From: Candidatus Cloacimonadota bacterium
GTDB lineage: Bacteria > Hydrothermota > E44-bin80
Length of the DNA: 64,000 nt
Direction of reading: 5' to 3'
Assembly: GCA_004375965.1 (NCBI GenBank)
Contig: SOIS01000073.1
Span: 14,802 to 78,801 of the forward strand
This document shows, piece after piece, positions 5,944 to 62,671 of the stretch. The notes under the pieces are model-generated. The model searched no databases, was not told where the DNA came from, and saw only the letters and a program-made list of their open reading frames with translations. Made by a program: the position numbers and the translations under genes. Position 1 is the first letter of the stretch; the number at the start of each line of letters is the position of its first letter.

Positions 5944-6942
5944 TTACTTAAACCAACCCTCTTTTTTTAATTTATCTATACTATCAGGCTTCTTTCCTTT
6001 GGTAATCCTGTACACCTCTTTAAGTTCTTCTATTTCCTTTTTTTTGTAATTCTCAATATGTCTTGATTCCTGGGTGTAAAGAAGTTGGTTCTTTTTGTAA
6101 AAGGGTCTTTTAATTATCCCAAAGACAATATTTGCTACAAGAAAAAGTATAGCTCCGGTCCATAATAATACATTAATGATAGCCTCTATGGAAATCTTAA
6201 TAGGTTTTCTCTCTTTCCTTCTCGGTTTAGCAACTACTGCAGTTTTTTCAATAACCCCGCCTTCAAGTAAGTTATAAAGGGCATGATATGTTCGAAACCT
6301 ACCAACTCCAGAAGATGCTACAACATCCGCAACACACATCTTCCCATCTATCAATTCAAGCACTACCTTTTCCTGTTCTCCCATTTCTATCGAAAGGCGA
6401 GGTCGTTTTTTTCTCCGAAAGACAATCTTGGAATCAGGGATTGATTTCTTTATTTTTGGCCACTCATCAATCCTCCTCATTCCTTCAATAATCAAGAACT
6501 GCGGGTTTACAAGAACACTGCACTTACTCTTGGAATATAACCGTTCGCCTAACCGAAACTTATACTCTCCTTTTTTCCATGTAAAGAGTTCGTCAACGAT
6601 CTCCTGTATTTTAAACTCTATAATTTTTTCCAGATCCTCTTTTGTCAGAACATTATTTTCTACAAGTTTATCAACAACAGGGATTCCTTTCTTTTTGGAT
6701 TCTCTATCAAACTTCTTTAACTCTTCCTTGGAAATTCTTCCTATGAGAACAAGATAATCACCAATGGGTTTCAATACACCTTTTTTATTATGTGAAGCAG
6801 AAGAGATCATCCCGTTTTCGAAACCGAGTGATATAATCTCTCTCTTGAATTGAAAGACAAGAACACCAGTCTTCCCCTGGGTATTAATTAACTGAAAAAC
6901 ATCAGCTACACCAAAATCCTTTATATTTCCTTCAAATGCCAT
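5944..6942 (-). CDS. DUF4388-like domain protein with C-terminal transmembrane segment
   Basis: N-terminus GNIKDFGVADVFQLINTQGKTGVLVF plus LELIDGKMCVADVV. One hydrophobic helix (ILFLVANIVFGII). Confidence 0.5.
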   Translation of the reverse strand: MAFEGNIKDFGVADVFQLINTQGKTGVLVFQFKREIISLGFENGMISSASHNKKGVLKPIGDYLVLIGRISKEELKKFDRESKKKGIPVVDKLVENNVLTKEDLEKIIEFKIQEIVDELFTWKKGEYKFRLGERLYSKSKCSVLVNPQFLIIEGMRRIDEWPKIKKSIPDSKIVFRRKKRPRLSIEMGEQEKVVLELIDGKMCVADVVASSGVGRFRTYHALYNLLEGGVIEKTAVVAKPRRKERKPIKISIEAIINVLLWTGAILFLVANIVFGIIKRPFYKKNQLLYTQESRHIENYKKKEIEELKEVYRITKGKKPDSIDKLKKEGWFK

Positions 6943-9122: not shown

Positions 9123-10331
9123 CTATATGGTATGTCTTCGACTAGCACCAGGTAAGAATAAGAGGGATAAAAGGATTAGAATACCAATAAAAGAGAAGAT
9201 TAAGACATTACAATTTATAAAAAGAAATGGCTTCGGAAATAGATCATAAAAAAAACCACCAGCAAGAGGACCGATCACTGTTCCTAGATTGTTAACAGTG
9301 TTAATTAAACCTATATTTTGCCCGAGACGTCTACCTCCTAATTCACTAACACCTGACCGTGAAATCGGTGTAAAAGACCGAGCACCAGTTCCGAGAATTA
9401 CAAGAAAAATAATAAGAAGAAAGGTATTATTTATAAACGGTATAATAACTGATGCAATCCCTGTTATAAATCCAACAATGAGAAGCCCTTTTACAATACC
9501 CTTCTTATCAGAGAGATAGGAGAAAAAAAGCATTGAAAAAAGGGCAGAGATGTTGATCGCCATAAGAATAAAGGCAATATTCTTTGTTGGTATAAGAAAC
9601 TGTTCATTCAGATAGAGCACAATTATTGATCGAATAAGACCTGGTATTATTCCGATGAGAAAACCGAGAATAATAACTGCAATAAAACCACTGTTTTCTT
9701 TAACCGGTACTTTCCTTTCTATTTCTCTTGTCAACACTCTTTTTGGTATCGTTTCAGTAATGAAGAACGAGATGAAAAAACCGATAAGATATATTACACC
9801 AGACAGGAGAAAGATAATCCTAAAAGCATAATTCTCATCAGCCTTAAATAAAAACATTACAAAGATAATGGTTGTACCAATCAGTGCATTTCCAATGCTC
9901 ATTCCAGCACTTCCTGAAGCAAAATAAAAGCTGAGTGCCCTTGTCTTAAATGACTTCACAGAGCTTTCAATTGTTATCACCTGAGCAATTGGCCAAATTA
10001 ATCCAGAGAAAGTCCCTTGAAAAATACTGATGAAAAGAACATCAAAGTAGTTTCTTGAAAAAAACAGAACAATGCATGAAATGATGTATGCAAAAAACCC
10101 GATAGGAAGAAATACCTTCCTCCTCTCTATCTTATCTGAAAACCTTCCACATATATATGCAGCAACTGCTCTCGCAAACATAAATCCTGATACTAAAGCA
10201 CCTACTTGAAAGCCTGTTACTCCCATCCTCCGTGTGAAAATAGGAAGAATAGGACGTATCAGGGCAATCCCCACTGCACCAGTAAAGGCGAGTGACATTA
10301 GCACGAATATATTTTTCTTAACTCTTTCCAT
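9123..10331 (-). CDS. MFS transporter
   Basis: About 12 predicted TM helices and the MFS loop motif GRFSDKIERRKV. 402 aa. Confidence 0.7.
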   Translation of the reverse strand: MERVKKNIFVLMSLAFTGAVGIALIRPILPIFTRRMGVTGFQVGALVSGFMFARAVAAYICGRFSDKIERRKVFLPIGFFAYIISCIVLFFSRNYFDVLFISIFQGTFSGLIWPIAQVITIESSVKSFKTRALSFYFASGSAGMSIGNALIGTTIIFVMFLFKADENYAFRIIFLLSGVIYLIGFFISFFITETIPKRVLTREIERKVPVKENSGFIAVIILGFLIGIIPGLIRSIIVLYLNEQFLIPTKNIAFILMAINISALFSMLFFSYLSDKKGIVKGLLIVGFITGIASVIIPFINNTFLLIIFLVILGTGARSFTPISRSGVSELGGRRLGQNIGLINTVNNLGTVIGPLAGGFFYDLFPKPFLFINCNVLIFSFIGILILLSLLFLPGASRRHTI

Positions 10332-10450
10332 ATTAAAAGTATAAAGGTTAAGGAAAAAGGTAAAAAATTGTACAAGGTTGGGTCACAGAGAAATCAGTAA
10401 ACCACTGATGGAGTTGAGTAAAAGTAAAGTGAAACATCACGAATGTCTCT

Positions 10451-11533
10451 TTACAGAATAAATGGTGCTGGTATGAAGGTTAAAATGAGGAAAATCATTG
10501 CAACTATTCCTATAATTTTGTGTTTAAGAGAAATAGGACTGATGTCATCAAGAGGTGCAGGATGTTTAACCTTTACGAACCACATTATAAGAATTGCCCA
10601 TATAAACCATCCCTGCCAGAGAAACCCAAAAATAAAGAGGGAGGAGAAGACGACCCATCCTATCCATGCCTGGTATCTTCCAATAAGTCCATACATAATA
10701 TGACCTCCATCAAGCTGACCCATTGGAAGCAAATTGAGCGCTGTAACAAAAAGACCAATCCATCCTGCAAAAGCGACAGGATGAAGTAATATATCCTTTC
10801 CAGGGGGCACATCACCAACTACAACCTTTGAGATGAGATTAAAGAGAATCGAACTCCCAAGACCAAGTCCACCCTCCTCAACCGGAATAACAGTTGATAA
10901 CTTGAGACCGATCACTACGGCAGGTATTGCAAAAATTAATCCAACAAGTGGGCCTGCAGCCCCTATTTCAAGAAGTGCTTTTTTGTTTGTTATTGGTGCC
11001 TTCACTTTTATCACTGCACCGAATGTTCCTATAAAATGAGGGAAAGGAATAAAATAGGGAAGCGTTGCATCTATACCAAGTCTTTTTGAAGCAAAATAAT
11101 GTCCCAGTTCATGTGAACCAAGTATAAGTATAATAGTAAAAGAGAAGGGAATTCCAGTATATATCTTAAGAAAAGGATTTACTCCCTTTTGTAAGGCTCC
11201 GGCGAACATTGTTGTAATAATTGTAAGAATGAAGAGTATGATATTTATTGTATAGTTTGCTTTCTCTGGTGGTTTCAACTTAGGCACAAATTGAATAAGG
11301 GTTTTTTCTTTTCTTCTTCTGAAAAGTGGCATTAGTCCGACAAAATCAGATTTCTCTTTTATTTGTTTAACTGCTTCCTTATGGGGAATAATGAAATCGC
11401 CTATAACTGTAATTCTAAACTGTTCAGACCCTACCTCGGATATTATCATTATTCCGTCGAGAATGTCCCTTATTTTTTCTTCCCTCTCACTACTTATATC
11501 ATACATTTCTTTAGTTGGTTCTGTTGGGGACAA
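10451..11533 (-). CDS. site-2 protease family (peptidase M50) membrane metalloprotease
   Basis: HELGHYFASKRLG (HExxH inside a TM helix) in a polytopic membrane protein. Confidence 0.75.
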   Translation of the reverse strand: MSPTEPTKEMYDISSEREEKIRDILDGIMIISEVGSEQFRITVIGDFIIPHKEAVKQIKEKSDFVGLMPLFRRRKEKTLIQFVPKLKPPEKANYTINIILFILTIITTMFAGALQKGVNPFLKIYTGIPFSFTIILILGSHELGHYFASKRLGIDATLPYFIPFPHFIGTFGAVIKVKAPITNKKALLEIGAAGPLVGLIFAIPAVVIGLKLSTVIPVEEGGLGLGSSILFNLISKVVVGDVPPGKDILLHPVAFAGWIGLFVTALNLLPMGQLDGGHIMYGLIGRYQAWIGWVVFSSLFIFGFLWQGWFIWAILIMWFVKVKHPAPLDDISPISLKHKIIGIVAMIFLILTFIPAPFIL

Positions 11534-11583
11534 GCTCCAACGCTACATTTTTTCCCCTGGTTTCTTCACCGTTTCTCCAATTT

Positions 11584-12684
11584 TCACATTCCCCGTTTCT
11601 CAAACTTCTTCCCTACTCCTTCGTACTCCTTTGCCGCTTCCTCCCCTCTGAGGACACGTAATGCTCCCATTGCCAGTGCCTCCATCTCATCCTCACCAGG
11701 AAGAACAATTATTTTTGCCAGAAACTCAGTCTTACTTTTGATATAATTAATCACAAATTTTGAATGTGCAATACCTCCACTGATAACAATAGCATCAATC
11801 CTTCCAGAAAGTACAACTGCCATCTGTCCAATCCATTTTGACACCTGGTATGCCATTGCTTCAAGAACGAGTTCTGATTCCTTATCGCTATTCTCAATTC
11901 CTCTCTCAATCTCCTCAACATTGTCCGTCTCGAGATGTGAAAAGAGACCTGATTTTTTAAGGAGTTTTTTCATCATCTCCTTTTCAGTATATTTACCACT
12001 GTAACAAAGTTTAACGAGACCTGTTAAAGGTACAGTCCCAGCCCGCTGTGGTGAAAAAGGTGCCTCATCATTGGCATTGGATGAATCTATCTGTCTACCT
12101 TTTCTGTGAGCACTGACAGAAATCCCGCTTCCGAGATGAACAATTATAAGGTTCACATTCTTGTAATCTTTTGTCAGCTCTCTTGCTGCCCTTCGTGCAG
12201 TTGCCTTCATATTGAGAGCATGTGAAAGACTTAACCTTGGTATTTCTTTCACACCTGAGATTCTGGCAACAGGTTCAAACTCGTCCACAGATACAGGGTC
12301 CACAAAAAAGGACGGGATCCCATGTGGTTCAGCAATGCCGTGAGCAAGAAAAACCCCAATGTTAGAGATGTGTTCTGCCTGAACTTTACCATGCTTTACA
12401 TCATTCAAAATCCTATCATTTACCCTGTATGTGCCACTTTTGAGAGGAAGAAATGGACCACCCCTTCCTACAACAGCACTCAGTGATTTAAGTGGAACAG
12501 CTTTCTTTTCAAGGAGTTTAATAATATGGGCTCTTCTATACTCATACTGGTCCAGGTGTGTTTCAAAACGACTCAACTCCTCATTGCTGTGTCTTACAGT
12601 TTCAATAAAAAGAGGAGTTTCATCCTCATATACCCCTATCTTTGTCGATGTACCACCTGGATTAATAACAAGTATTTTATACAT
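11584..12684 (-). CDS. buk: butyrate kinase (acetate/butyrate kinase family)
   Basis: MYKILVINPGGTSTKIGVYE N-terminus. Start chosen at the internal ATG (12684) preceded by an AAAGG Shine-Dalgarno, not the longer track ORF that starts at 12702. Confidence 0.8.
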   Translation of the reverse strand: MYKILVINPGGTSTKIGVYEDETPLFIETVRHSNEELSRFETHLDQYEYRRAHIIKLLEKKAVPLKSLSAVVGRGGPFLPLKSGTYRVNDRILNDVKHGKVQAEHISNIGVFLAHGIAEPHGIPSFFVDPVSVDEFEPVARISGVKEIPRLSLSHALNMKATARRAARELTKDYKNVNLIIVHLGSGISVSAHRKGRQIDSSNANDEAPFSPQRAGTVPLTGLVKLCYSGKYTEKEMMKKLLKKSGLFSHLETDNVEEIERGIENSDKESELVLEAMAYQVSKWIGQMAVVLSGRIDAIVISGGIAHSKFVINYIKSKTEFLAKIIVLPGEDEMEALAMGALRVLRGEEAAKEYEGVGKKFEKRGM

Positions 12685-12694
12685 TATTAACCTT

Positions 12695-13507
12695 TCATAC
12701 ATCCTTCTCTTTATAGGATATCTTCTCTCCTTTGTTAAACAGGGTTATACCCTCAATACCCATATTTTTAAGCAGTTTCATCGTCTCTGGTATCCTATAT
12801 CCAATGTGTTCAGGTAGATGTGCATCGGAACCAATAGTGAGATATTTACCACCAAGGTTTAAGAATCTCCTTACTATTTCCATACGGGGATATGTCTCTT
12901 TCGGTAGATGTCTGAGCCCTGATGTATTAACTTCAAGTGCTATCCTCTTCTTCTTAATCGTCTCAAGTATTTCATCAATGGGTTTCTTAAATTCTTCGTA
13001 CGAATAATCCGCAATGTACTTCAGTGCATACCTCCGTATCATCTCAAAATGTCCAAGACAATCAAAGATACCACTATTAACGAGGTCAAAGGTAACCTCA
13101 AAATAGGAGAGAAAAGCCCTTTCTCTATCTAACTGCTTGAAAAACTCTGCAGTTCCCTCATCGTGCGAAACATCAAAATTATTGACAAGATGAACAGATC
13201 CGATAATAAAGTCGTAGTCTTTATCATTGAGGAATCTCCTGATTTCATCCTCCCTCTCTTTCTGATAGGTTATCTCTACCCCCTTTTTTATCTTTAGTCT
13301 ACCGTTATATTGACTCTTCAGTTCTGATATCTTCTCTGTAATATCATCATAATTATAATATCCATAGCCGTCATCCTGAGGGTCTAAATCAAGATGTTCG
13401 GTAAAAGCGATCTCATAAAAGTCACGTTCAATTGCACGATTGCAAACCATTTCAGGTTTTAGGTGGGAATCACACGAAAATATCGTGTGTATATGGTAGT
13501 CTATCAC
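12695..13507 (-). CDS. PHP-domain phosphoesterase, histidinol-phosphatase HisJ family
   Basis: MIDYHIHTIFSCDSH...FTEHLD is a PHP motif set. Start is GTG at 13505-13507 by my reading, abutting the upstream stop. Confidence 0.75.
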   Translation of the reverse strand: MIDYHIHTIFSCDSHLKPEMVCNRAIERDFYEIAFTEHLDLDPQDDGYGYYNYDDITEKISELKSQYNGRLKIKKGVEITYQKEREDEIRRFLNDKDYDFIIGSVHLVNNFDVSHDEGTAEFFKQLDRERAFLSYFEVTFDLVNSGIFDCLGHFEMIRRYALKYIADYSYEEFKKPIDEILETIKKKRIALEVNTSGLRHLPKETYPRMEIVRRFLNLGGKYLTIGSDAHLPEHIGYRIPETMKLLKNMGIEGITLFNKGEKISYKEKDV

Positions 13508-13508
13508 A

Positions 13509-14066
13509 TCAACCTCTAAGAGAATAGCCTTTTAGACCAACAGCGGATGGACATATTATCTCTACGTGCTTGTAATGAAGTCTTCCTTTCTTAATGTATT
13601 CGGAAGCAGTTATTCGAATATGATAACCACCAAGAGTTCCAGAGATACTTCCATTAGTATTTGTATGCCATTCAACGGTTCTTTTGCTCTCATTCACAGC
13701 AAGAATTATATATACATTCCCTTCATCCATATCTGCAATATCCTCACCACTGGGATGGGAAAGTGCCCTACTATCTCCAAGCTCTGTATGGGAATGGTAG
13801 TCACCGATCACATCAACAGGTAAAAGATGAACTATTTTCTTGATCCTCGATGCCCTTCGTTCATTTGGACTAACCCAGGTTTTTGCCTTCTGCGCTGTCT
13901 GAAAAGGAATTGCGTATTCAATAATGAAGGTCTCTTCACCTTTGAGACCGAGCAGAAGACCAAGTGTTTCAAAATTATAGACCTCAATAGCTGAGAGTAC
14001 CATTGACCAGAACGCCCTCTCCTTGATAATTACATTTTTTCTTTTAGTCTCTTTTCTTTCAGACAT
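13509..14066 (-). CDS. JAMM/MPN+ (Mov34) family metalloprotease-like protein
   Basis: E..G.L.G (ETLGLLLG) followed by DYHSHTELG...SHPSGEDI (HxH...S..D). ATG at 14064-14066 overlaps the upstream HD-gene stop by 8 nt (ATGTCTGA). Confidence 0.55.
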   Translation of the reverse strand: MSERKETKRKNVIIKERAFWSMVLSAIEVYNFETLGLLLGLKGEETFIIEYAIPFQTAQKAKTWVSPNERRASRIKKIVHLLPVDVIGDYHSHTELGDSRALSHPSGEDIADMDEGNVYIILAVNESKRTVEWHTNTNGSISGTLGGYHIRITASEYIKKGRLHYKHVEIICPSAVGLKGYSLRG

Positions 14067-14595
14067 TATGCAAAGTTTTAAGGCATTCAAAATTAATGAA
14101 ATCACTGTGATGAATAATGATACTCTCTATTGTTCTTTGATAGATGTCTCCTTCCTTCGAGTGGGTATAGATTATGTGGACAATTTCAGAAGGGAGTCCA
14201 AACTCGCTTGCAAGATTCGCTCCGCTTACCGGATGCCTGAGGAGATTTCCAACTTTTGATTTTTGAAAACCTTTCCCTTTATTTTCGTACTCTAACAATT
14301 TCCCGATGTCATGGAGCAAACCACCTGAAATCAGATAATCCCGATTAATTTCTATACTCTCATAGGATGTCTGCAATGCGTCAGCAATTTTTAATGCACA
14401 ATTTGTCACTGCTCTTGTGTGCTCTACAATGTTAATCTGAGTATCGGGTATCAAAAGTGTAAAGGGAACAGCAAACAGGTCATTCTCTTTCCATCCTCCC
14501 AATTCCATTGCCCTTTTCCAGACCTTCTGGGTTTTCTCCTGTAAATCTTTTTCTTTAATATTTTCTATTTCAGGGAATATCTTTACAAATTCCAC
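14059..14595 (-). CDS. HD-domain (HDIG-like) phosphohydrolase
   Basis: HTRAV...GGLLHDIGK...HHSDF. Confidence 0.7.
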   Translation of the reverse strand: MEFVKIFPEIENIKEKDLQEKTQKVWKRAMELGGWKENDLFAVPFTLLIPDTQINIVEHTRAVTNCALKIADALQTSYESIEINRDYLISGGLLHDIGKLLEYENKGKGFQKSKVGNLLRHPVSGANLASEFGLPSEIVHIIYTHSKEGDIYQRTIESIIIHHSDFINFECLKTLHNV

Positions 14596-14898
14596 ATCTT
14601 CCTCCTTGTAATACGCACAAAAAGAGAAGCAAGGATTATTTTAATTGTATCCCCTGCTATGAAAGGAAGTACACCTATCTTAAATGCATTAAATAGTTTT
14701 TTATCCAATTCTTTTCCTTTCTATAGACTCTGCCTCAGAGGTAAAGAGTTTACAAAAATGATTAAAATTAATCCTGTTTCGTTCTGCATTGTAGTGCTGC
14801 TCTGGTGTTGCTGTTCGAAGGATTATAGTAGATTTATTTAACTTTGTTGTTGTACTTACAAGCTTAAACCGTGATAATCCGTGGCTAAATTCTTCTTC

Positions 14899-16395
14899 CT
14901 ACTTCTCCACACTTGTATCTATCTGTGCCTTCTGAAGTTTTCCAGAATAATCAAAGTAAATTGTCTTTATTTCTGTGAATATCTCATATACAGCTAATCC
15001 TCCTTCTCTATGTCCATTACCTGTATTCTTTACACCGCCAAATGGAAGATGACATTCAGCACCAATAGTGGGTCCATTTATATATGTGATACCCGCTTCT
15101 ATCTCCTCTGCTGCCTTCAACGCAAGATTCACATCTCTTGTATAGATGGAGGAAGAGAGTCCATAGTTTGTATCGTTCATTATCTTTATGGCATCATCGA
15201 ACTCACTGAATTTAATAACGGAAAGTACAGGTCCGAATATCTCTTCTTGTTCGATTCTCATCCCAGATTTCACATCAATAAAAATTGTGGGTTCATAAAA
15301 CCATCCTTTTGCACATTCTCCTTCCTCGTAAAAATTGCCACCAAGTACAAGTTTTGCTCTTTCTTCTTTCCCAATCTTGACATAGTTATGTATAACATCC
15401 CTCTGCCCACTATTTATTACTGGTCCCATCTCAACTGTCTCCTCAAGACCATTTCCTATCTTTATCTTCTTTGCTCTTTCTTTTATCATTTCTATAAATT
15501 TATCATAAATTTTTTCATTAAGAATTAACCTTGATGTTGCAGTGCATCTCTGACCTGTAGTTCCAAATGCTCCCCATAAAACACCTTCAAGCGCAAGGTC
15601 TAAATCTGCATCTTGCATAACAATCTGTGCATTCTTTCCACCAAGTTCAAGTGAAACCCTCTTTAGCATCTTCCCACTAACCTCGGCAATACGACTCCCT
15701 ACCTCCGAAGAACCGGTGAAGGAGATAACACCAATATCGGGATGTGCAAGCAGTGCTTCTCCTACCTCTCTTCCTGTTCCGTGAACAATATTTACGACAC
15801 CTTCGGGAATACCAGCTTCATTTAATATTTCAACAAGCTTTGTTGCAGTTGCAGGCGTAGCACTCGCAGGTTTAATTACAACAGAATTTCCAGAAAGGAG
15901 AGCTGGTATCACCTTCCAGCATGGGATAGCCATTGGAAAGTTCCAGGGGGTTATCAATCCCGCTACACCAATAGGTTTTCTGACTGTGTAACATATCTTA
16001 TCTGGAAGTTCAGAAGGTGTTGTTATGCCAAAAAGCCTTCTACCTTCACCAAAGGCATAATAAGCAGTATCAATCCCTTCCTGGACATCGCCCCTTGTCT
16101 CCTTGATAACCTTTCCCATTTCTCTTGTTTCAAGTTTCGCAAGTTCCTCCTTCCTCTCAACCATTATATCACCACAACGACCAAGGATTTCTCCTCTCTT
16201 GGGGACAGGAACCCTCTTCCAGGACTCAAATGCCTTCTTTGCAATATCAACTGCATTCTCAACATCCTTAGCTGTTGACTTGGGGAATATGCCAACGATC
16301 TCATCCCAATTGGCAGGGTTTCTATTCTCAAATGTTCTCTTTGATTCAGATTCAACCCATTTCCCTCCGATAAAATTTTTATAAACCTCTGTCAT
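14899..16395 (-). CDS. NAD(P)-dependent aldehyde dehydrogenase
   Basis: ELGGKNAQIV, FTGSSEVG and GQRCTATSRL (catalytic Cys). 498 aa. Confidence 0.85.
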   Translation of the reverse strand: MTEVYKNFIGGKWVESESKRTFENRNPANWDEIVGIFPKSTAKDVENAVDIAKKAFESWKRVPVPKRGEILGRCGDIMVERKEELAKLETREMGKVIKETRGDVQEGIDTAYYAFGEGRRLFGITTPSELPDKICYTVRKPIGVAGLITPWNFPMAIPCWKVIPALLSGNSVVIKPASATPATATKLVEILNEAGIPEGVVNIVHGTGREVGEALLAHPDIGVISFTGSSEVGSRIAEVSGKMLKRVSLELGGKNAQIVMQDADLDLALEGVLWGAFGTTGQRCTATSRLILNEKIYDKFIEMIKERAKKIKIGNGLEETVEMGPVINSGQRDVIHNYVKIGKEERAKLVLGGNFYEEGECAKGWFYEPTIFIDVKSGMRIEQEEIFGPVLSVIKFSEFDDAIKIMNDTNYGLSSSIYTRDVNLALKAAEEIEAGITYINGPTIGAECHLPFGGVKNTGNGHREGGLAVYEIFTEIKTIYFDYSGKLQKAQIDTSVEK

Positions 16396-16592
16396 TCGAC
16401 CTCCTTAATCCACTTAAAAATACTTACTTTTCTACCCTCAAGCCCCAATTTTTAATGACTTGAGCCAAACTGCGGTGTGAGCATAACAATAATTGTTGTC
16501 AATGTCAAGTCCTTTTTCCTAACCTTTTCTCCCCTTTTTCAATACTCACTTCATCACCACCTCCTTTAATCCTTTTATCTTTATCCTACTGC

Positions 16593-17441
16593 TCACTCCT
16601 CACTCTGTTCTCCCTCTTGCCCACTCTCCCCTTCTCCAGTGCTCCCGATGAAATCACTTCCTGCCTGTTTTCTGTCATCTATCATCCCTATTATACCGAG
16701 GTTTTCTCCCGTCTTTTCTCCCGACTTTCTATAAGAAAAGAAAAGATTATCCAATGAGCAAGAACAGATTTCTGGAACAAGGATTTTTTTAACACCACTC
16801 TCTTCCAACTGCTCCCGCACCATTTTCCACATGTCTAAATAGATGCTATTCTTTCTTTCAATGAGATATTCCCTTTTAAACCTTTTCAAAAACTCCTTAC
16901 CAACTTCATAGCAGCAAGGGCCTAAGGATGGGCCTAAGAGTGCTTCAATACTTTCTGCTTTTATATCAAATGCTTCACACATCTTATCTACTCCCTTCTT
17001 TGCAATACCCTTCTCTGCTCCCGCTCTACCAGAATGCACTATACTAATGATTTTATTAATGGGTGAATGAAAAAAAACAGCAATGCAATCTGCTGTAAAA
17101 ACACCAAGAACTATACTCTTTCTATCTGTTATCATCCCATCCCCTTTCAGTTTATCAGATGAATCGTTCACTATATTCACAATATCAGAATGTGTCTGTT
17201 TTGTGTAAACTATATTTCTCTCATCAATAGAGACTGCATTAAAAAATCGTTTTCTGTTGAATTTCACATTACTGATATCGTCCCCTCTTCCATAATGTAG
17301 ATTTAATGTATCATAAGGTGGAGAACTTACACCACCAATCCTTGTTGAATAAAAAACATTGACACCCTTCCAGCCTTCGAATGCGAGGTAGACTACACCA
17401 TTCTTCTCTTTTAATCTCCAGAACTTGAAATCCTCTTTCAT
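16593..17441 (-). CDS. yfiH: YfiH/PgeF (DUF152, laccase-domain) family protein
   Basis: YSTRIGGVS, KQTHSDIV, TADCIAV and IVHSGRAG motifs. Unusual acidic/Gly-rich C-terminal tail (GSTGEGESGQEGEQSEE). Confidence 0.75.
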   Translation of the reverse strand: MKEDFKFWRLKEKNGVVYLAFEGWKGVNVFYSTRIGGVSSPPYDTLNLHYGRGDDISNVKFNRKRFFNAVSIDERNIVYTKQTHSDIVNIVNDSSDKLKGDGMITDRKSIVLGVFTADCIAVFFHSPINKIISIVHSGRAGAEKGIAKKGVDKMCEAFDIKAESIEALLGPSLGPCCYEVGKEFLKRFKREYLIERKNSIYLDMWKMVREQLEESGVKKILVPEICSCSLDNLFFSYRKSGEKTGENLGIIGMIDDRKQAGSDFIGSTGEGESGQEGEQSEE

Positions 17442-21233: not shown

Positions 21234-22196
21234 TTACACCATTCTATCCGTCTTTCTTTCTCCAAAGATAAAGATAACTGCACCGGAAAGACTAACAACC
21301 ATTGTAATTCCAAGATAGATTATTGAAATAAGGATTGATTGGGACGATTTAACACTTGCAAGATTAAATAGAAATACATATAAACCCTCTCTTATTCCAA
21401 TACCGTTTATGGTTATGGGAATCATACTTGCAATATTAATCACAGGAATGAATGCAAGATAATAATAATATGGAATTTCTACTAACAGTGCCTTTCCAAT
21501 AAAAAAAGCCATTGTTATCAGAATTACCTGAAAAAGAAAGGATAAAAGAATTGTTTGAAAAACCACCAATTTTCTCTTCTTATAGTAATAGAGTGCATTA
21601 TAGAGTCTCTTTATCTTGTTCTTCAGTTTTGAAAGGATTTTTATCTTGAATAACCAATTGAATCTTTTTAACGTTTTTCTTTTCAGAAAGAAAAAGATAC
21701 CTGCTATGAATAAGATTGTAAGAAAAACTAGTCCAAGAAAGATAAAGAGAATAAAACGGTTCTTCACTATAAAAAGAGGAAGGGAGAAAATACCAAGAAG
21801 GAGTATTGAAAGAAACCCTATCATCCTTTCTGAAATAACCGAGGCAAAACATTCTGCTTTTTTCCCATAGTTATTTGATGCATAAACTCCCCTTACTATA
21901 TCAAGACCAACACCTGTTGGGAGAAAATTATTAAAGAAAAAACCGACAAGGTAATAGCTAAATGTTTTATGGAACGGTATATCTATTGAATGTGCGGAAA
22001 GAAGTATTTTCCATCTCGCTGAAATAATTGCAACGGCTAAGAGAAATAATATAATTGAGAGAACGATGAAGAGAAAATCTGTTTGTTTAAGTATTGCAAG
22101 GACTTTACTTGTATCCGCTTTGCTAAAAAGAAAGAGTAACAGCCCTATACCTACTATAAGTCTTACTACTATGAGGAGACTTCTTTTATATTTCAC
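21234..22196 (-). CDS. UPF0104 (lysylphosphatidylglycerol-synthase-like TM region / flippase-like) family membrane protein
   Basis: Polytopic membrane protein with LLFSKADTSKVLAILKQ...ISARWKILL. The track ORF (to 22277) overlaps the upstream GT4 by 92 nt. I place the start at the GTG at 22194-22196, an 11-nt overlap, with low confidence. Confidence 0.5.
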   Translation of the reverse strand: MKYKRSLLIVVRLIVGIGLLLFLFSKADTSKVLAILKQTDFLFIVLSIILFLLAVAIISARWKILLSAHSIDIPFHKTFSYYLVGFFFNNFLPTGVGLDIVRGVYASNNYGKKAECFASVISERMIGFLSILLLGIFSLPLFIVKNRFILFIFLGLVFLTILFIAGIFFFLKRKTLKRFNWLFKIKILSKLKNKIKRLYNALYYYKKRKLVVFQTILLSFLFQVILITMAFFIGKALLVEIPYYYYLAFIPVINIASMIPITINGIGIREGLYVFLFNLASVKSSQSILISIIYLGITMVVSLSGAVIFIFGERKTDRMV

Positions 22197-23319
22197 CAGA
22201 TAGTCTTTTCTCCAAGAGTTCCAGTATTCCTTTCGCAGACGTCTCCCAGTCAAAGTTTTTTGACCATTTAATTGCATTATTTTGCATATCTTGAAGGAGG
22301 TCTCGTCTTTTTAGCAATTTCTTTATTGAAGAAGTAAGTGCATTAATATCTCCGTAAGGATAGAGTAGTCCATTGAATCCGTCTTTTACCGAATCCCTCA
22401 ATCCGGGAGAATCTGCTGCCACCACAGGAATACCACATGCATTACTTTCTATAACGGTCAGCCCCCATCCTTCCTTTGATGAAGTATTCACAACGATTTC
22501 TGATCCCTGAAGTATACTTATTTTTTCATCCTCTGAAATAAATCCAGTAAAATTAATTATGCTCATAATCCTGAGGGATGCCGCGATATTTTTTAGATCT
22601 GGTAGCGCATCACCATCACCAATCATCACAACCTTCAAAAGAGGGAATTCCTTTCTTAAACGTTCGACTGCATAAAGAAGATGTTCAATACTTTTGTATC
22701 TCTTTATTCTTCCCAAAAATGTAATTTGGAATGGTGTCTTTTCCCCCTTTCCCGGTTTATATCTGCTGAGGTCTATTCCGTTGTAATGTATGAATATGTT
22801 CTCTTCAGGAATTCCCGACTTAACAAGGTCCGCTTTTGTGCTTTCTGAAACAACATCAAAAGGTATATTTCTGTAAACCAACGGGATAAGTGACTCTGTA
22901 ATATAAACATATAATGCAAATGGAAAGATGGTCTCCTTGAAGATGTCTCTTCCAAAACGATGATGAAGAATAGCAACTGTTGGAATCTTTATAAAGAGTG
23001 GGGTGAAGAAAGGAATTTTATTCAGGTCTTCAACAAGAATATCGATATGCTCTCTCTTTACAATCTCTTTTACAGCATAGGGGACAAAAAAGTTGAAGTC
23101 GTTTCTCCTCCCCTTTCGTATTATATGAATCCCGTCCAAAATTTCTTCCTTCTTAGCTCCAGAAAACCCACTAGCCAATAAGGTTACATTGTGCCCCCAA
23201 TGTGCAATCCTGTCAAAGATCTCATGAAGATGAACTTCTGCTCCACCAGCAAAAGGGTTACGTCTATCTTGCCAATTTACAATGAGAATATTCATAAGAA
23301 CAGAAAAATAAAACAGCAA
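22186..23319 (-). CDS. glycosyltransferase family 4 (GT-B fold)
   Basis: EGWGLTVIESNACGIPVVAADSPGLRDSVKDGFNGLL (EX7E-type C-terminal domain). Confidence 0.8.
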   Translation of the reverse strand: MLFYFSVLMNILIVNWQDRRNPFAGGAEVHLHEIFDRIAHWGHNVTLLASGFSGAKKEEILDGIHIIRKGRRNDFNFFVPYAVKEIVKREHIDILVEDLNKIPFFTPLFIKIPTVAILHHRFGRDIFKETIFPFALYVYITESLIPLVYRNIPFDVVSESTKADLVKSGIPEENIFIHYNGIDLSRYKPGKGEKTPFQITFLGRIKRYKSIEHLLYAVERLRKEFPLLKVVMIGDGDALPDLKNIAASLRIMSIINFTGFISEDEKISILQGSEIVVNTSSKEGWGLTVIESNACGIPVVAADSPGLRDSVKDGFNGLLYPYGDINALTSSIKKLLKRRDLLQDMQNNAIKWSKNFDWETSAKGILELLEKRLSGEI

Positions 23320-29661: not shown

Positions 29662-31329
29662 CTATTGAAGCTTTGCGATAACCCTTTTTATAATCCTTTT
29701 GGCTTTACTTTTGACCCTTTTTAATAAACCATCAACTTCAGCCTTTATCGATTTTTTGAACTCCTCATCCTTTATATTACCAAGGTTTATAATCACATTT
29801 AAATAACCACCTTCACATGCTGCATCTGCCATAATCGCTGCAACTCCAGCATCACTCACCGAGTTCTGATTTCCTTTTTTTTCTGCTACAGCAGCAAGAT
29901 CCAGTATTCTTTCTGACTTCTTCATTATCTCAAGAGGAACAAGTGTTGCTTTTTTTGTGGCTTCCTCAATTGCTTCATCCCTCTTTTTCTTTTCCTCTTC
30001 CGTCTTCTTCTTTAGTCGCATTGCGCTCATCACATTATTGAATGCTTCTGCATCCTTTTCAATCAGATCGATAAACTCGTCTTTCAAAACCTGCGCCTGC
30101 AGCGCCAGATTCTTCATTCTTCTGTTGGCTTTCCTGTATTCCTTTTTCCCATATGTAAGGTTAGCTACCATTGACGATAAGGCTGAACCGAGTGCTCCTG
30201 AGAGTGCCGCTACACTTCCTCCGCCTGGAGTAGGTGAATCAGTTGACAATTCATTTGAAAATTCACGAAGATTCATGCTCAAGAGTTCTTGCTTCTCAGC
30301 TATTGCATACTCGATAATCTTCTCTTCTGGCTTAAATGGATAGAGCTGGTCCATTCCTAACGAAATAACTGCTGTTCTTATCAGTTCCTCATCTGGCACA
30401 CCTGGACATTTTCTCTGTTTCTCCAGGTAATATCTCCCTGTCTGCAGCATTGCCTCTTTTGGTATTAAGCCAACAAGCTCGCTGCCTGTTACCCTTAAAC
30501 CAAGTTTTCTTGCCTCTTTTCTGCATTCCTCAAATAATTTATACAATGGAGTAATTTTATAATTCGTAAGGTTCACAGATACCTGGGCAATCCCGTACTC
30601 GTCAATATACCACCCAACACCCTTAACTTCCTTTAGTTTTCCAGGTATCTTTACTGTTTTACCATTTTCATCCCTTATTATCTTTCCTTTCTCATCCCGT
30701 TTTACCCGACCCTGCTCACGTATATTCAGAGCAATTTCATGTGCCAGCTTTCTTTCTCTTGTATTAAGATTTATATTGTATGCAATAAGAAATTCACGAG
30801 CACCAATAATCGTTGCACCCAATTTTTTATTAAAAACCGGTTCTCCATAATCAGGTTTCCACTCAGGATCTTTGAGTTTCTCAGGAAGACCCTCATACTC
30901 TCCCTCCCTGACTACTGCAAGGTTCCTTCTCTCCGGTTTTGTTGCCGCCTCTTCATATAAATAGACAGGAATTGAAAGTTCCCGTGCTACCCTGTCCCCA
31001 ACCTCATTGGCAATCTTCACACAATCCTCCATGGTAACGCCTGCAACAGGAACGAATGGGCATACATCCGTGGCTCCCATCCTTGAGTGCGCACCTTTAT
31101 GCTTACTCATATCCAGGACTTCCGACGCCTTTTTGATCGCTCTGAAGGCTGCTTCCTTGACACCTTCAGGTGTTCCAACAAAGGTAACGACCGTCCTGTT
31201 GGTTGCTTCACCAGGGTCAACATCAAGGAGTGTTACTCCTTTTGTTTTTGCTATCTCATCTGTTATTGTCTTAATCTTTTCCTTGTCCCTTCCTTCACTG
31301 AAATTTGGAACACATTCGACTATCTTCAT
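29662..31329 (-). CDS. ftcD: bifunctional glutamate formimidoyltransferase / formimidoyl-THF cyclodeaminase
   Basis: N-terminus KIVECVPNFSEGRD (formiminotransferase). C-terminus TPGGGSVAALSGALGSALSSMVANLT (cyclodeaminase domain). Confidence 0.8.
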   Translation of the reverse strand: MKIVECVPNFSEGRDKEKIKTITDEIAKTKGVTLLDVDPGEATNRTVVTFVGTPEGVKEAAFRAIKKASEVLDMSKHKGAHSRMGATDVCPFVPVAGVTMEDCVKIANEVGDRVARELSIPVYLYEEAATKPERRNLAVVREGEYEGLPEKLKDPEWKPDYGEPVFNKKLGATIIGAREFLIAYNINLNTRERKLAHEIALNIREQGRVKRDEKGKIIRDENGKTVKIPGKLKEVKGVGWYIDEYGIAQVSVNLTNYKITPLYKLFEECRKEARKLGLRVTGSELVGLIPKEAMLQTGRYYLEKQRKCPGVPDEELIRTAVISLGMDQLYPFKPEEKIIEYAIAEKQELLSMNLREFSNELSTDSPTPGGGSVAALSGALGSALSSMVANLTYGKKEYRKANRRMKNLALQAQVLKDEFIDLIEKDAEAFNNVMSAMRLKKKTEEEKKKRDEAIEEATKKATLVPLEIMKKSERILDLAAVAEKKGNQNSVSDAGVAAIMADAACEGGYLNVIINLGNIKDEEFKKSIKAEVDGLLKRVKSKAKRIIKRVIAKLQ

Positions 31330-38440: not shown

Positions 38441-39295
38441 TCATCTGACTTCTGTCCCTATTCTACCTGTTTTAATAAGTTTCTCCTTTGCAAGTTGAGA
38501 CCATCTATTATGAGGATTTTCTTTCACCATCTCTTTCCATATTCTCTTTGCCTTCACCTCATTACCTTTCCCATAAAATGATAGTGCTAAATAATGTTTT
38601 GCCTCAAAAAGATTTGGTCCTATCTCTAATGCCCTCTCAAAGAAATGGATTGCATCATTATACATATTCCTTTCAAAATATATCAATCCAAGATAATAGT
38701 TTGCGTAGAGTGAAGCACTCGCATCCTTACCTGTTTTTATTACCTTTGAAAGGTGTTCTATCGCCTCTCCAAAAATCTTTTTCTTGTAGCAAATATATCC
38801 AAGATTATTTCTTGCCATCTCATCAGTTGGATGTATATTCAGAACTTTCTGGTAGAGAAGTAATGCATTATCAAATTTTTCTGTGTACATATATGCCCAC
38901 CCAAGGAGTTTCAAGACCTTCACATTGTTTGGAGCTTTCTTCAGAGCAGGCTCAAGAACCTTCTCTGCCTCAGCATAATCACCGGAGGCAATGAAATTCC
39001 ACCCTTTATCAATCAATGTTAAAATATCTGTTTTTGATATGCTCATTGATTGTACAAAACCTTTGAGTATCTCTTCTTTTTTTTGTTCTACTACTTTTTC
39101 CTTCTCATTAAGATATTCTTCCATTTTTTTCTCTATACGTTTGAGTCTCTCCCTGTAACTTTTTACAATATTATAAACATATTCGACCTTCTCAGCATAG
39201 AGTGAAGGTTTGTCACCAGATTTTGCTTCTTTAAGTTTTTCTTTGAGTTCGAGTATCAGTTTCTCAAAATTATCCATATTTTTTTCTTCCATCAT
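38441..39295 (-). CDS. TPR-repeat protein
   Basis: Coiled-coil N-terminus then multiple TPR repeats. Start overlaps cheB stop by 4 nt. Confidence 0.6.
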   Translation of the reverse strand: MMEEKNMDNFEKLILELKEKLKEAKSGDKPSLYAEKVEYVYNIVKSYRERLKRIEKKMEEYLNEKEKVVEQKKEEILKGFVQSMSISKTDILTLIDKGWNFIASGDYAEAEKVLEPALKKAPNNVKVLKLLGWAYMYTEKFDNALLLYQKVLNIHPTDEMARNNLGYICYKKKIFGEAIEHLSKVIKTGKDASASLYANYYLGLIYFERNMYNDAIHFFERALEIGPNLFEAKHYLALSFYGKGNEVKAKRIWKEMVKENPHNRWSQLAKEKLIKTGRIGTEVR

Positions 39296-40320
39296 CTTGT
39301 GAAATCTATTATCTCTTTTGCAATTTCACAAAGTGGAACAACTTTATCTACATAACCCGTCTTAATCGCTGCCTTGGGCATACCGAAAATTACAGATGTT
39401 GATGCATCTTCAACAATAACCTTACCTTTTGATTTTTTTACTTCGAATAAACCATCAGAGCCATCCTTGCCCATACCTGTAAGAACAACTGCAAGAACCC
39501 TATCGCCAAAACTTGCAAGAGACTTCAAGGTTATATCACAGGACGGTCTAACACCATGTTTTTTTGGTTTATTTGTTAAGAGAATCTTCCCATTCTGAGT
39601 AACTTCCATATGTTTATCGCCTGGTGCAACGTAAACCTTGCCCTCCTTTAACAACTCACCACCATTTGCTTCTTTAACATCGAGAGGTGAAATTTTATTA
39701 AGTCTTTCAGCAAGTAAAGGTGTAAATTGCTCTGGCATATGTTGAATAATAAGGATACAAGCATTCAGATTCTTAGGTAAGACTGAGAGGACAACACTGA
39801 GTGCTCGTGGTCCTCCTGTTGAAGTACATATTATGATAATCCTTCTATTAGAGCGAGATGGAGTATACTCAAAAGTACAAGCCTCATATTGCGGAAGACA
39901 TGTTAACTTCTCCCTTCTTATTGCTGAGGCACGAATAATCTTCTCAATAAGTTCTTTTCTAACTTCTCTCATATTAACCGAGATACTACCAGAAGGTTTT
40001 GAAACAAAATCAACAGCGCCAAGATTAAGTGCCTCAATGGTTTCTCTTGCACCGTCTTTTGTGTAAGCACTGAGCATCACAACAGGAACGGGGTGGACCC
40101 TCATGATGTTTTTTAAGAAATCAATTCCATTCATCACAGGCATTTCCATATCAAGAGTAACCACATCAGGATTTAGCGAAATAATTTTTTCTATACCCTC
40201 TTTGCCATCTCTTGCAGAGCCGATAACCTGTAACCTTGGGTCACTGTTAAGCATATCAGTTATGACATTTATCATTAGTATTGAATCCTCTATGATAATG
40301 ACGCGGATTTGTTTAGTCAA
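39292..40320 (-). CDS. cheB: chemotaxis response regulator protein-glutamate methylesterase
   Basis: REC domain (IIIEDS...DVVTLDMEMPVMNG) plus methylesterase domain (TSTGGPRAL, HMPEQFT). Confidence 0.85.
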   Translation of the reverse strand: MTKQIRVIIIEDSILMINVITDMLNSDPRLQVIGSARDGKEGIEKIISLNPDVVTLDMEMPVMNGIDFLKNIMRVHPVPVVMLSAYTKDGARETIEALNLGAVDFVSKPSGSISVNMREVRKELIEKIIRASAIRREKLTCLPQYEACTFEYTPSRSNRRIIIICTSTGGPRALSVVLSVLPKNLNACILIIQHMPEQFTPLLAERLNKISPLDVKEANGGELLKEGKVYVAPGDKHMEVTQNGKILLTNKPKKHGVRPSCDITLKSLASFGDRVLAVVLTGMGKDGSDGLFEVKKSKGKVIVEDASTSVIFGMPKAAIKTGYVDKVVPLCEIAKEIIDFTR

Positions 40321-40799
40321 ATCTCTTTGATCCCTTTCTTATATGACTTGACAACGACCTTACCGTTGGACAGATGGAAATCAACCGACCTACCCCAGCT
40401 TCCACCTGTATCCTTTGATAGCACACTTATTGAATGCTTTTTAAGAACCTCTATAGCAGCATTGACATTCTTCTGTCCGATTGAATTCTTAGTAAGCGTT
40501 GGGAACATGTTTGCACCGCCAACAAGTTTTGCAATGAGTCTTTCCTTCTTTGCACCCAAATCTTTAATCCTTTTGATAAGAATCTCAATCCCCGTGTCAG
40601 AAAATTTTGCAAGGTTTTCGTCACTTTTAGCAATTGACCTTGTGGGTAGAAGGAAATGATTCATTCCACCAATCTTCGTAAGAGGGTCATATAACATCAC
40701 AGCCACACATGAGCCTAATCCGTATGTACTTAGAATATAAGGACTTGAGCCTACTGCAATATCAGCTATCCTAACCTTTATTGTTTGAGTATTTAACAC
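40317..40799 (-). CDS. cheD: chemoreceptor glutamine deamidase CheD
   Basis: YGLGSCVAVMLYD...GGMNHFLLP. Confidence 0.8.
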   Translation of the reverse strand: MLNTQTIKVRIADIAVGSSPYILSTYGLGSCVAVMLYDPLTKIGGMNHFLLPTRSIAKSDENLAKFSDTGIEILIKRIKDLGAKKERLIAKLVGGANMFPTLTKNSIGQKNVNAAIEVLKKHSISVLSKDTGGSWGRSVDFHLSNGKVVVKSYKKGIKEI

Positions 40800-41596
40800 T
40801 TTCTATAAATCCTTTCCCGTGAATCAACTGTATTGAACAGTGATTTCGCTTCACCAACAAGGTATTCCACCTTTCCAAGAACTAAGAATGCTTTTTCGTT
40901 TAATCTATTGTAAATCATTGATAGGATTTTCTCCTGAAAAGTCTTCTCCATATAAATAAGTACATTTCTGAAAAGGACAAGGTCCAGCTCTTTTAATTCT
41001 ATATTTTCTTCTTCAATATCAAACCTTACAAATCTTACCTTCTCTTTTATCTTATCCAAAACACAAATCTTCTCATCTTTCTTAAAATACATATTAAGAA
41101 AATATTCTGGTGTTTCGTCAAAGACCTCATTTCTATAGCATCCAATTCGAGCAGTATTCAAGCTATCATTATCTATATCTGTTCCTATTACAGAAAATTG
41201 TGCAGATGATTGCCTTTCACTTAAAAACTTATCCAGAAGCATTGCAATAGTATAGCTTTCTTGTCCCGTAGCACATCCCGCACACCATACCTTAATTAAT
41301 CCACCTTTCCTTTCATTTTCTCTTAATATCTGAGGTAGAACAACCTCTTCAATTTTTCCAAAAGTTTCATAATTTCTAAAGAATTTTGAAACATTAATGG
41401 TAAGGGTTTTATGTAATAAACGTTGTTCTTTTGTATCCCGTTCAAGTAGTTTTGCATATTCAAGATATGAGTTTATTCTATTATATCTCATTCTAACCGC
41501 AATTCTTCTTTTTAGTGGTCTCTTTTTATATCTTTCCGGAAAGAAACCAAGTTTTTCAATCATCATCCTTTTTAATACCTCAAACTCTTCGTTCAT
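40793..41596 (-). CDS. cheR: chemotaxis protein methyltransferase CheR
   Basis: VWCAGCATGQESYTIAMLL (SAM-binding) and C-terminal VLFRNVLIY. Confidence 0.85.
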   Translation of the reverse strand: MNEEFEVLKRMMIEKLGFFPERYKKRPLKRRIAVRMRYNRINSYLEYAKLLERDTKEQRLLHKTLTINVSKFFRNYETFGKIEEVVLPQILRENERKGGLIKVWCAGCATGQESYTIAMLLDKFLSERQSSAQFSVIGTDIDNDSLNTARIGCYRNEVFDETPEYFLNMYFKKDEKICVLDKIKEKVRFVRFDIEEENIELKELDLVLFRNVLIYMEKTFQEKILSMIYNRLNEKAFLVLGKVEYLVGEAKSLFNTVDSRERIYRKC

Positions 41597-45438: not shown

Positions 45439-46776
45439 TTACAGCATTTCATCTACGAGACCTGTATGGATGTTTCCTTTAATAAAATCTTTGTTTTCGA
45501 GTAACTTCAGGTGGAAAGGTATCGTTGTTTTAATTCCTTCAATTACAAATTCTTTTAATGCTCTGCGTAGGCGAGTAATAGCCTCCTCTCTGTTATTTCC
45601 ATAGGATATCAATTTTGCAATAAGCGAGTCATAATACCTTGGGATAGAATAACCAGAGTAAAGATGTGTATCAACCCTTACGCCTGGGCCACCAGGTATA
45701 TGAAACCCATCAATCCTTCCTAAAGATGGTAAGAAATTTTTTTGAGGATCCTCTGAGTTTATTCTTGCCTCTATAGCACATCCTCTCAATTTAATATCCT
45801 TTTGCGAAAAGGGTAGTTTTTCGCCCGACGCAATCTTTATCTGTTCCTTAACCAGATCTATACCTGTGACAAACTCTGTAACTGGATGCTCAACCTGTAT
45901 CCTTGTGTTCATTTCCATGAAGTAGAAATTCCCTTTTTGATCCATTATGAACTCGACGGTCCCAGCATTTTTATATCCTATCTTCTCCATTCCTTTAACA
46001 GCATATGCCCCTAACTTTTTCCTCTTCTTCTCACCAACAGCTGTTGATGGACTCTCTTCAAGTAACTTCTGATGCCTTCTCTGTACCGAACATTCTCTTT
46101 CTCCGAGATGAACTGTATTTCCATAATTATCTGCTAAGATCTGAAACTCAATGTGTCTTGGATTTTTAATGAACTTTTCTATGTAAAGACTCCCATTACC
46201 GAAAGCTGCTTCTGCTTCAGTACGTGCTATCTTAAAAAAATTTTTGAATTCAGATTCAGCGTTAACAATTCTCATGCCCTTACCACCACCACCAAAAGCA
46301 GCTTTTATTATAACAGGGAAACCAATATCTTTAGAAATCTTCAGTCCTTCACTTATCTGTGAAACGGACTTCTTGCTTCCTGGGATGACAGGAATACCAG
46401 CATCTTCCATTTCCTTTTTGGCACAAACCTTATCACCCATTTTTCTAATAATTTCGAAAGGAGGACCTATAAATTCTATGCCATTTGATTCACACATTTC
46501 AGCGAATTGGGGATTTTCAGCAAGGAACCCATACCCAGGATGGATTGCCTCACAGTTTGTAACAAGACAGGCACTAATTATCTCTTTTGCACTGAGATAA
46601 CTATCTTGGCTTTGAGGTGGTCCAATACAGACAGATTGGTCTGAGAAACGTACATGAAGCGAATCTTCGTCTGCCTCTGAATGAACAGAAACAGTCTCTA
46701 TACCAAGTTCCTGACAGGCTCTTATTATCCTTAGAGCAATCTCTCCTCTGTTTGCAATAAGAACCCTTTTGAACAT
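45439..46776 (-). CDS. accC: acetyl-CoA carboxylase biotin carboxylase subunit
   Basis: [22 protein letters not shown]-grasp motifs, [14 protein letters not shown]. Confidence 0.9.
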
Positions 46777-46781
46777 TCAAA

Positions 46782-47888: not shown

Positions 47889-47898
47889 AATATATTCT

Positions 47899-61679: not shown

Positions 61680-61973
61680 CTAATCTTCTCCTGTGGATAG
61701 TTCAAAAATTACAGTTCCTCCACCTGTGTATTCGCAGGGATCAAGGCATTGAAGATATGCTTTATTTCCTGTCTTTGCAAGCCCTAACGTTTTTGGGTCA
61801 ACTCCTTTTGAAAGAGATATATAGTAAGGCATAAAAGAAGCGAATGAATGTAGACACAATGCATCCGTTTCTTTGAGGTTAAGTCTGTACCCTTCCTCTA
61901 TCACTATTCTATCTCCCTCTTTATATACTGGACATTTGCCTTTTATTTTTATTACTTTAATGATGAGCCTCAT
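61680..61973 (-). CDS. TIGR04076-like small Cys-containing protein
   Basis: KGKCPVYKEGDRIV...ALCLHSFASFMPYY...LQCLDPCEYTGGGTVIFEL. The track ORF begins at a TTG (62048); I take the internal ATG at 61973. Stop abuts the AlkP start. Confidence 0.55.
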   Translation of the reverse strand: MRLIIKVIKIKGKCPVYKEGDRIVIEEGYRLNLKETDALCLHSFASFMPYYISLSKGVDPKTLGLAKTGNKAYLQCLDPCEYTGGGTVIFELSTGED

Positions 61974-62663: not shown

Positions 62664-62671
62664 AAATACTC

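Follow-up and report, generated by a model that had tools for sequence, protein, structure and literature searches.

The four-gene string and its gene calls

The stretch of DNA analyzed here, hereafter called the window, comprises 64,000 nt of contig SOIS01000073.1 from a bacterium recorded as Candidatus Cloacimonadota. At positions 11584-14595, its minus strand carries a string of four closely packed genes for an HD phosphohydrolase, a JAMM/MPN+ protein, a PHP phosphatase and a butyrate kinase. In the direction of transcription, the genes are:

14059..14595, minus strand: HD, HD/HDIG-domain metal-dependent phosphohydrolase, 178 aa, the 5'-most gene of the string
13509..14066, minus strand: JAMM, predicted JAMM/MPN+ zinc metalloprotease, 185 aa
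12695..13507, minus strand: PHP, PHP-superfamily phosphatase of the HisJ (histidinol-phosphatase) family, 270 aa
11584..12684, minus strand: buk, butyrate kinase, 366 aa

An earlier note, made from the sequence alone, had described these four minus-strand genes as joined by an 8-nt overlap, a 1-nt gap and a 10-nt gap, and all of these junctions were reproduced. The HD gene begins with a GTG start codon that has an AGGAGG ribosome-binding site in front of it. The JAMM gene starts with an ATG at 14066, upstream of the HD stop codon (14061-14059), giving the 8-nt overlap ATGTCTGA. A single nucleotide separates the TGA of JAMM from the GTG start of PHP, and the ATG of buk lies 10 nt past the PHP stop. 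On identical metagenome contigs, independent gene callers predicted the same four products (178, 185, 270 and 366 aa), and the four start sites agree with the N-termini of homologues. An in-frame ATG at 12702 was considered as an alternative start of buk, but homologue N-termini gave it no backing.

The four gene identities assigned in the earlier note also held, with every domain call above its curated profile cut-off. Source records name identical or homologous proteins butyrate-kinase-family, "histidinol-phosphatase HisJ family", "Mov34/MPN/PAD-1 family" and "HDIG domain-containing", and all four components belong to known families. A promoter and terminator scan of positions 10300-16700 returned 11 promoter-like sites, compared with 17.1 in shuffled sequences, and terminator-like sites at chance level, and is uninformative on operon boundaries. 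Rfam searches at the gathering threshold and ARAGORN detected no riboswitch, leader or tRNA in the whole 64-kb window.

The gene order is restricted to one clade

A scan of species-representative genomes yielded 238 relatives of the JAMM protein, for which 80 loci were fetched. At least 238 species-level genomes, drawn from WOR-3, Stahlbacteria, TA06, Acidobacteriota and Nitrospirota, encode a member of the JAMM family. Neighbors were tested by tblastn of the window HD, PHP and buk products against 85 JAMM-centered loci. The three genes were found beside JAMM only where the JAMM protein was at least 74% identical to that of the window (loci L001, L002 and L006-L010), and in one further locus with 69% identity (L174). 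The same arrangement was present in three buk-centered loci (L090-L092). Where JAMM identity was 55% or lower, in more than 70 loci, neither HD, PHP nor buk was adjacent, and the sole match within 10 kb was an HD homologue 8.8 kb away (L021). These distant loci represent other WOR-3 lineages as well as Stahlbacteria, TA06, Hydrothermota, Acidobacteriota, Nitrospirota and Deltaproteobacteria. Source records label the metagenome-assembled genomes of the clade variously as WOR-3 or Cloacimonadota.

Three further features of the window, all flanking the string, are needed to describe its surroundings:

14899..16395, minus strand: aldehyde dehydrogenase (ALDH), context gene upstream of the string, PF00171 594.8 bits
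14592..14708, minus strand: bioY remnant (biotin transporter, last ~39 codons), found by tblastn with the BioY protein of L001
10451..11533, minus strand: M50-family membrane metalloprotease, context gene downstream of buk, PF02163 68.1 bits

Conservation within the clade extends well beyond the four genes. Clade loci are collinear over about 12 kb, in the order RecJ-PgeF-ALDH-...-M50-MFS-TPR, and the M50 gene is kept downstream of buk in L001, L006-L010, L091, L092 and L174. Because the entire region is collinear in the clade, conservation of the four-gene order does not exceed background synteny.

At its 5' end the composition of the string is fluid. In L001 and L006-L010, ALDH and HD are separated by a complete bioY gene (190 aa). 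L174 has no bioY, and its ALDH and HD genes are only 15 nt apart. In the window, the remnant aligns with residues 150-188 of the L001 BioY protein (49% identity, E 1.4e-6) and overlaps the 303-nt spacer between ALDH and HD (14596-14898). A biotin-linked function of the string was considered and rejected, since some clade members have an intact bioY, some lack it and the window has only a decayed copy.

Outside the clade, JAMM has other neighbors. De novo clustering of neighbor genes revealed no universal JAMM neighbor. The recurrent ones were lineage-specific housekeeping genes: DprA, GltX, a universal stress protein, pantothenate kinase (CoaX), a GalT-like protein, FabD and a geranylgeranyl-reductase-like protein, as named from representative sequences and, for DprA, also from precomputed Pfam matches. 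In sister lineages with a JAMM of 51-54% identity (L011 and L028), an ALDH orthologue lies upstream and a Beta_elim_lyase gene downstream of JAMM, and in L011 the ALDH stop and the JAMM start overlap by 4 nt. JAMM stands between a radical-SAM gene and the beta-eliminating lyase in L175, and the lyase lies just downstream of JAMM in L018. This lyase, of about 450 aa and of the tryptophanase/tyrosine phenol-lyase family, provides the most recurrent local context of the JAMM family that we saw (L011 8472-11849, L028 981-4727, L175 4253-6967 and L018 1701-3704, all from WOR-3/TA06 lineages). ALDH is the only window neighbor of JAMM common to the sister lineages. It is likely that an ALDH-JAMM pair was ancestral, that HD (sometimes with bioY) was inserted upstream of JAMM, and that PHP-buk was placed downstream.

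The earlier note had raised the possibility of a functional combination forming an undescribed pathway, and had named a gene order unique to this genome, with unrelated neighbors in close relatives, as what would speak against it. The outcome lies close to that. The order is found in close relatives only, where the surrounding region is collinear, and distant JAMM genes are flanked by unrelated neighbors. The idea of a functional combination did not hold up in this comparison.

Tight packing is a general property of this genome

Close spacing is common throughout the window: of its 48 same-strand junctions, 18 measure 10 nt or less. Runs of three tight junctions occur at least twice more, as TPR-CheB-CheD-CheR at 38441-41596 and as phosphodiesterase-unknown-APS kinase-ATP sulfurylase at 60387-63823. 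Another tight string (45439-48339, minus strand) consists of apparently unrelated genes: a PilT-like T2SSE ATPase, i.e., a type II/IV secretion ATPase (46782-47888, minus strand), lies between accB for the biotin carboxyl carrier (47899-48339) and accC for biotin carboxylase (45439-46776), with gaps of 10 and 5 nt. Since so many same-strand junctions are short and unrelated genes are likewise packed, the close spacing of HD-JAMM-PHP-buk is unremarkable, and no more than chance gives in this genome.

Taken together, we consider it probable, with good confidence, that the string is a lineage-specific and probably polycistronic set of functionally independent genes in one clade of uncultured WOR-3-type bacteria. 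The four genes are neighbors only in this narrow clade, which argues for ordinary gene packing and not for a new pathway, and each of them keeps different partners elsewhere, which argues for functional independence. Local rearrangement in a compact genome would have assembled the four-gene mosaic, with no dedicated pathway behind it. The genes would be co-transcribed, and translation may be coupled across the closest junctions. The gene order is new but unremarkable, and it lacks the defining features of both the ptb-buk operon and the JAMM-carrier systems, as set out below.

The JAMM protein is an intact-looking MPN+ protein without a recurrent small partner gene nearby

The JAMM protein matches the Prok-JAB profile PF14464 with 30.4 bits (cut-off 25, E 3.7e-7), and precomputed matches to PF14464 are on record for all 63 JAMM homologues. 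In an alignment of 25 homologues (45-80% identity), residues E33, H91-S-H93, S106 and D109 are invariant, and so is a C-terminal C172-P-x-A-x-G motif. An AlphaFold model was obtained with pLDDT 80.6 and pTM 0.79. Its top Foldseek matches in the PDB were all MPN+ enzymes, namely BRCC36, Rpn11, CSN5, the Caldiarchaeum Rpn11 homologue and PfJAMM1, with probability 1.00, E of about 2e-9 to 4e-7 and TM of about 0.55-0.64. A sequence-profile search of the PDB pointed to the same MPN+ families with marginal E (about 1e-3). The invariant E...HSH...S..D motif and the match of the model to MPN+ enzymes indicate that the protein is not a degenerate MPN. With a profile score above cut-off, a complete motif and a modeled MPN fold, the JAMM/MPN+ call of the earlier note is borne out, and the protein appears catalytically intact by motif and predicted fold. 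It would act as a Zn-dependent (iso)peptidase, and it belongs to a widespread, housekeeping-like family that has no fixed genomic partner.

With the archaeal and eukaryotic isopeptidases (the PfJAMM1 desampylase, Rpn11, CSN5 and BRCC36), the window protein shares the MPN fold and the complete E...HxH...S..D zinc site. It differs in three respects. HxH and S-x-x-D are separated by 12 residues, more than in PfJAMM1, a conserved beta-rich C-terminal extension ends in C-P-x-A-x-G, and no ubiquitin-like, SAMP-like or E1 gene lies nearby. Like the bacterial JAMM proteins of the Mec+/CysO-CysM system of M. tuberculosis and of the QbsD/PdtH systems with ThiS-like carriers, it is a small stand-alone Prok-JAB protein with an intact active site. 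However, the neighbors that define those systems, i.e., a beta-grasp carrier ending in GG, an E1-like adenylyltransferase and a cysteine synthase, are missing from the window and from about 80 JAMM loci.

The kinship to desampylase- and deubiquitinase-type enzymes, the nearest solved relatives by sequence and by fold, and the invariant catalytic residues would suit a role of JAMM in a ThiS/MoaD/CysO-type sulfur-carrier or ubiquitin-like system, with the carrier and its E1 encoded elsewhere and the present neighbors irrelevant. The gene content speaks against it. Among the approximately 62 window proteins scanned, Pfam detected no ThiS, MoaD or ThiF (E1-like) match, and neither a cysteine synthase nor an E1-like adenylyltransferase was present among these proteins or among the recurrent neighbor clusters of the JAMM loci. 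None of the window's open reading frames (ORFs) of 40-140 aa carries GG among its last six residues. In about 80 JAMM-family loci, 13 of 3516 small ORFs end in GG, none of them recurrent or plausibly beta-grasp, and clustering of the neighbors in these loci produced no recurrent small partner gene. The earlier note had thus rightly stated that no ThiS/MoaD-like carrier is visible here, but its premise that a bacterial JAMM is usually accompanied by a ubiquitin-like system does not fit this family. We regard a carrier system encoded elsewhere as unlikely, although it is the least unlikely of the alternatives to a string of independent genes.

Butyrate kinase lacks an adjacent ptb gene

The buk product is a clear butyrate kinase. 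It scores 471.6 bits with the TIGR02707 equivalog model (cut-off 289.1) and 489.9 with NF002834 (cut-off 222), and T. maritima Buk2 (1saz) is a full-length match with 2.5e-104. Such an enzyme would interconvert acyl phosphate and ADP with the acid and ATP, probably on short- or branched-chain substrates, and could provide a fermentative ATP gain.

The comparison set for gene context consisted of the 80 nearest buk loci in metagenomes. In 68 of 79 loci, the gene immediately upstream of buk is a PTA_PTB gene of about 300 aa, with PTA_PTB identity taken from cluster representatives that score 197-215 bits. This agrees with the statement of the earlier note that butyrate kinase normally partners phosphotransbutyrylase (ptb). 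The note had also found ptb absent here, and this was confirmed for the window. No PTA_PTB match was found among the window proteins, and tblastn with a Pfam-verified Ptb located none in the window. The same query detected no ptb within 10 kb in any clade locus, and had no match in any JAMM locus. Compared to the ptb-buk operon of fermentative bacteria, the kinase is common to both, and the adjacent phosphotransacylase is missing from the string. In the clade loci, the slot upstream of buk is occupied by PHP, as opposed to ptb in most of the comparison loci. The phosphotransacylase serving this kinase would be encoded elsewhere or be non-orthologous. Our literature search found no paper linking WOR-3 with butyrate kinase. 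In the publication on the first isolated WOR-3 member, the organism is described as a respiring thermophile, and the cluster is not mentioned.

PHP and HD belong to phosphatase families with contexts of their own

The PHP protein scores 100.2 bits with PF02811 (cut-off 26.4) and 167.8 with the family model TIGR01856 hisJ_fam (cut-off 90.2). It remains below all equivalog cut-offs (100.5 versus 133 for NF005996 HisJ, and 159 versus 321 for NF004086). Full-length matches include the histidinol-phosphate phosphatase of L. lactis (4gc3, 3.7e-31) and a T. thermophilus protein (2yxo, 1.2e-27). The motifs DYHIH, FTEH, SVH, LGH and SDAH align with their equivalents in 4gc3, and we take these HxH, E/H, H, H and DxH motifs to be the ligands of a trinuclear metal site. 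The protein thus resembles the known histidinol-phosphate phosphatases of the PHP type (HisJ/HisK; 4gc3 and 2yxo) in its full-length homology, its aligned metal-ligand motifs and its passing of the TIGR01856 model. It differs from them in falling short of the equivalog level and in having close orthologues in the clade only. Orthologues with 60-73% identity are confined to the clade of the window, and the next homologue, with 42% identity in Edwardsbacteria, stands in an unrelated context beside a ThiD-like kinase. Judging by family membership and motifs, PHP is most likely a phosphomonoesterase of the HisJ family with a trinuclear metal center, and histidinol-phosphate phosphatase is its most likely activity. 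The genes of PHP-type enzymes with this activity are typically found outside his operons (PMC9798254), and this also applies to the PHP gene of the window.

Elsewhere in the window, a 555-aa fused formiminotransferase-cyclodeaminase is encoded at 29662-31329 (minus strand) in full length, with FTCD_N, FTCD and FTCD_C. It suggests histidine or formiminoglutamate catabolism in a bacterium that also has the HisJ-family phosphatase.

The HD protein matches PF01966 with 57.3 bits (cut-off 22) and the HDIG model TIGR00277 with 52.9 bits (cut-off 27.6). Its sequence shows the H...HD...H...H...D residues, in the motifs EHTRAV, LLHDIGK, RHP, THS and HHSD. A sequence search found no related solved structure. 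The family is widespread, with proteins of about 178 aa and 50-60% identity in Aminicenantes, Zixibacteria, KSB1 and others, and the window protein is predicted to be a small HDIG metal-dependent phosphohydrolase of this family. Five homologues from other phyla (53-60% identity) were sampled for context. In three of them (L170 716-8531, L173 736-8534 and L172 4001-5786), a gene for the large subunit of an aconitase-family enzyme lies directly downstream of HD, and two of these loci are part of a citryl-CoA synthetase/citryl-CoA lyase/aconitase/isocitrate dehydrogenase cluster. The remaining two homologues are found in unrelated contexts. These three of five sampled loci hint at a role of the HD family tied to the (reverse) TCA cycle or to aconitase-type enzymes.

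Could the four genes nevertheless form a module?

The alternative closest to the original suggestion is a clade-unique module in which Buk makes or uses an acyl phosphate, PHP and HD set its level, and JAMM strips acyl or peptide modifications from lysine residues. Several observations weigh against functional independence and for such a module. The HD-JAMM-PHP-buk-M50 core is never interrupted in nine clade loci, across members whose proteins share as little as about 60-70% identity, and its genes remain closely joined (8- or 14-nt overlaps and 1- to 10-nt gaps in L001, L174 and the window). Insertions and deletions occur just outside the core, where bioY, Wzy_C and MFS genes come and go, in contrast to the intact core itself. 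PHP sits exactly where ptb normally stands, directly upstream of buk, and JAMM has an intact motif, yet no ubiquitin-like partner. The unbroken, tight core is weak evidence for selection on co-expression. It fits co-transcription and is the only point favoring functional coupling.

Against the module stand the lack of any recurrence beyond one collinear clade, the different partners that each component has elsewhere, and the equally tight packing of unrelated genes that is routine in this genome. In addition, we know of no chemistry that ties a JAMM isopeptidase to acyl-phosphate metabolism. We therefore judge it very unlikely that Buk, the two phosphohydrolases and JAMM work together in this way, and less likely than a carrier system encoded elsewhere. 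The same low standing applies to the more general proposal that HD-JAMM-PHP-buk is a true module, for instance for acyl-phosphate-driven control of protein acylation, and that, separately, JAMM represents a widespread bacterial MPN+ protease family that functions independently of any ubiquitin-like partner. A lineage-specific string of independent genes remains the preferred explanation.

An anti-phage or mobile-element system, for instance with a Cap3-like JAB protein of a CBASS or Bil-type defense system and HD and PHP as nuclease-like effectors, is scarcely conceivable: PADLOC reported weak superfamily-level matches (JAB models with 19.2 bits, E 1.7e-4; Cas3-HD with 28.4 bits), but these reflect generic domain similarity only, and the gene content effectively refutes a defense system. 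In CBASS and Bil systems, the JAB gene lies beside a CD-NTase and E1-E2 (Cap2), or beside a ubiquitin-like protein with E1 and E2. The Pfam scan of the window proteins found no CD-NTase, E1/E2, SAVED or Cas gene nearby. Furthermore, PHP is a full-length phosphatase of the HisJ family, buk encodes a metabolic kinase, and the region combines a host-like GC content with stable chromosomal synteny with housekeeping genes.

Other features of the window

Some other genes of the window are of interest in their own right. A 1105-aa protein (51112-54429, plus strand) combines an MCP signaling domain (residues 117-257) with an SBP_bac_5 (family-5 solute-binding) domain (residues 664-1024). An N-terminal MCP domain followed by a C-terminal SBP_bac_5 domain is an unusual order for a chemoreceptor. 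A 642-aa protein (43323-45251, minus strand) has a DnaA-type ATPase domain (PF00308) at residues 361-511. The long region on the N-terminal side of this domain is weakly similar to AAA_16. The DNA-binding domain of the DnaA C-terminus was not among its matches, and the protein is not a canonical DnaA. Two proteins with DUF4388 (PatA_N-type, receiver-like) are encoded at 5944-6942 and 41709-43283, both on the minus strand. The latter protein also contains a long TPR array fused to DUF4388, and its gene adjoins the CheR-CheD-CheB-TPR string already mentioned.

As listed, two minus-strand ORFs overlap by 92 nt, one for a GT4 glycosyltransferase (22186-23319) and the other for an LPG_synthase_TM protein (21234-22277). 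The latter probably starts downstream of its first in-frame ATG. Nearly all genes of the window are on the minus strand and the GC skew is negative throughout, which fits a single replichore arm.

Significance

The main value of this analysis is negative: a shared pathway cannot be deduced from tight packing or translational coupling in a compact genome. By the comparative data, the arrangement is a clade-specific accident of synteny. What stands out from it is the JAMM family itself, which is well conserved, catalytically intact by motif and present in at least 238 species-level genomes, with no ubiquitin-like or E1 neighbor in the approximately 80 loci examined. The buk gene without an adjacent ptb bears on how the metabolism of WOR-3 fermenters is reconstructed, since butyrate production should not be read from buk alone.

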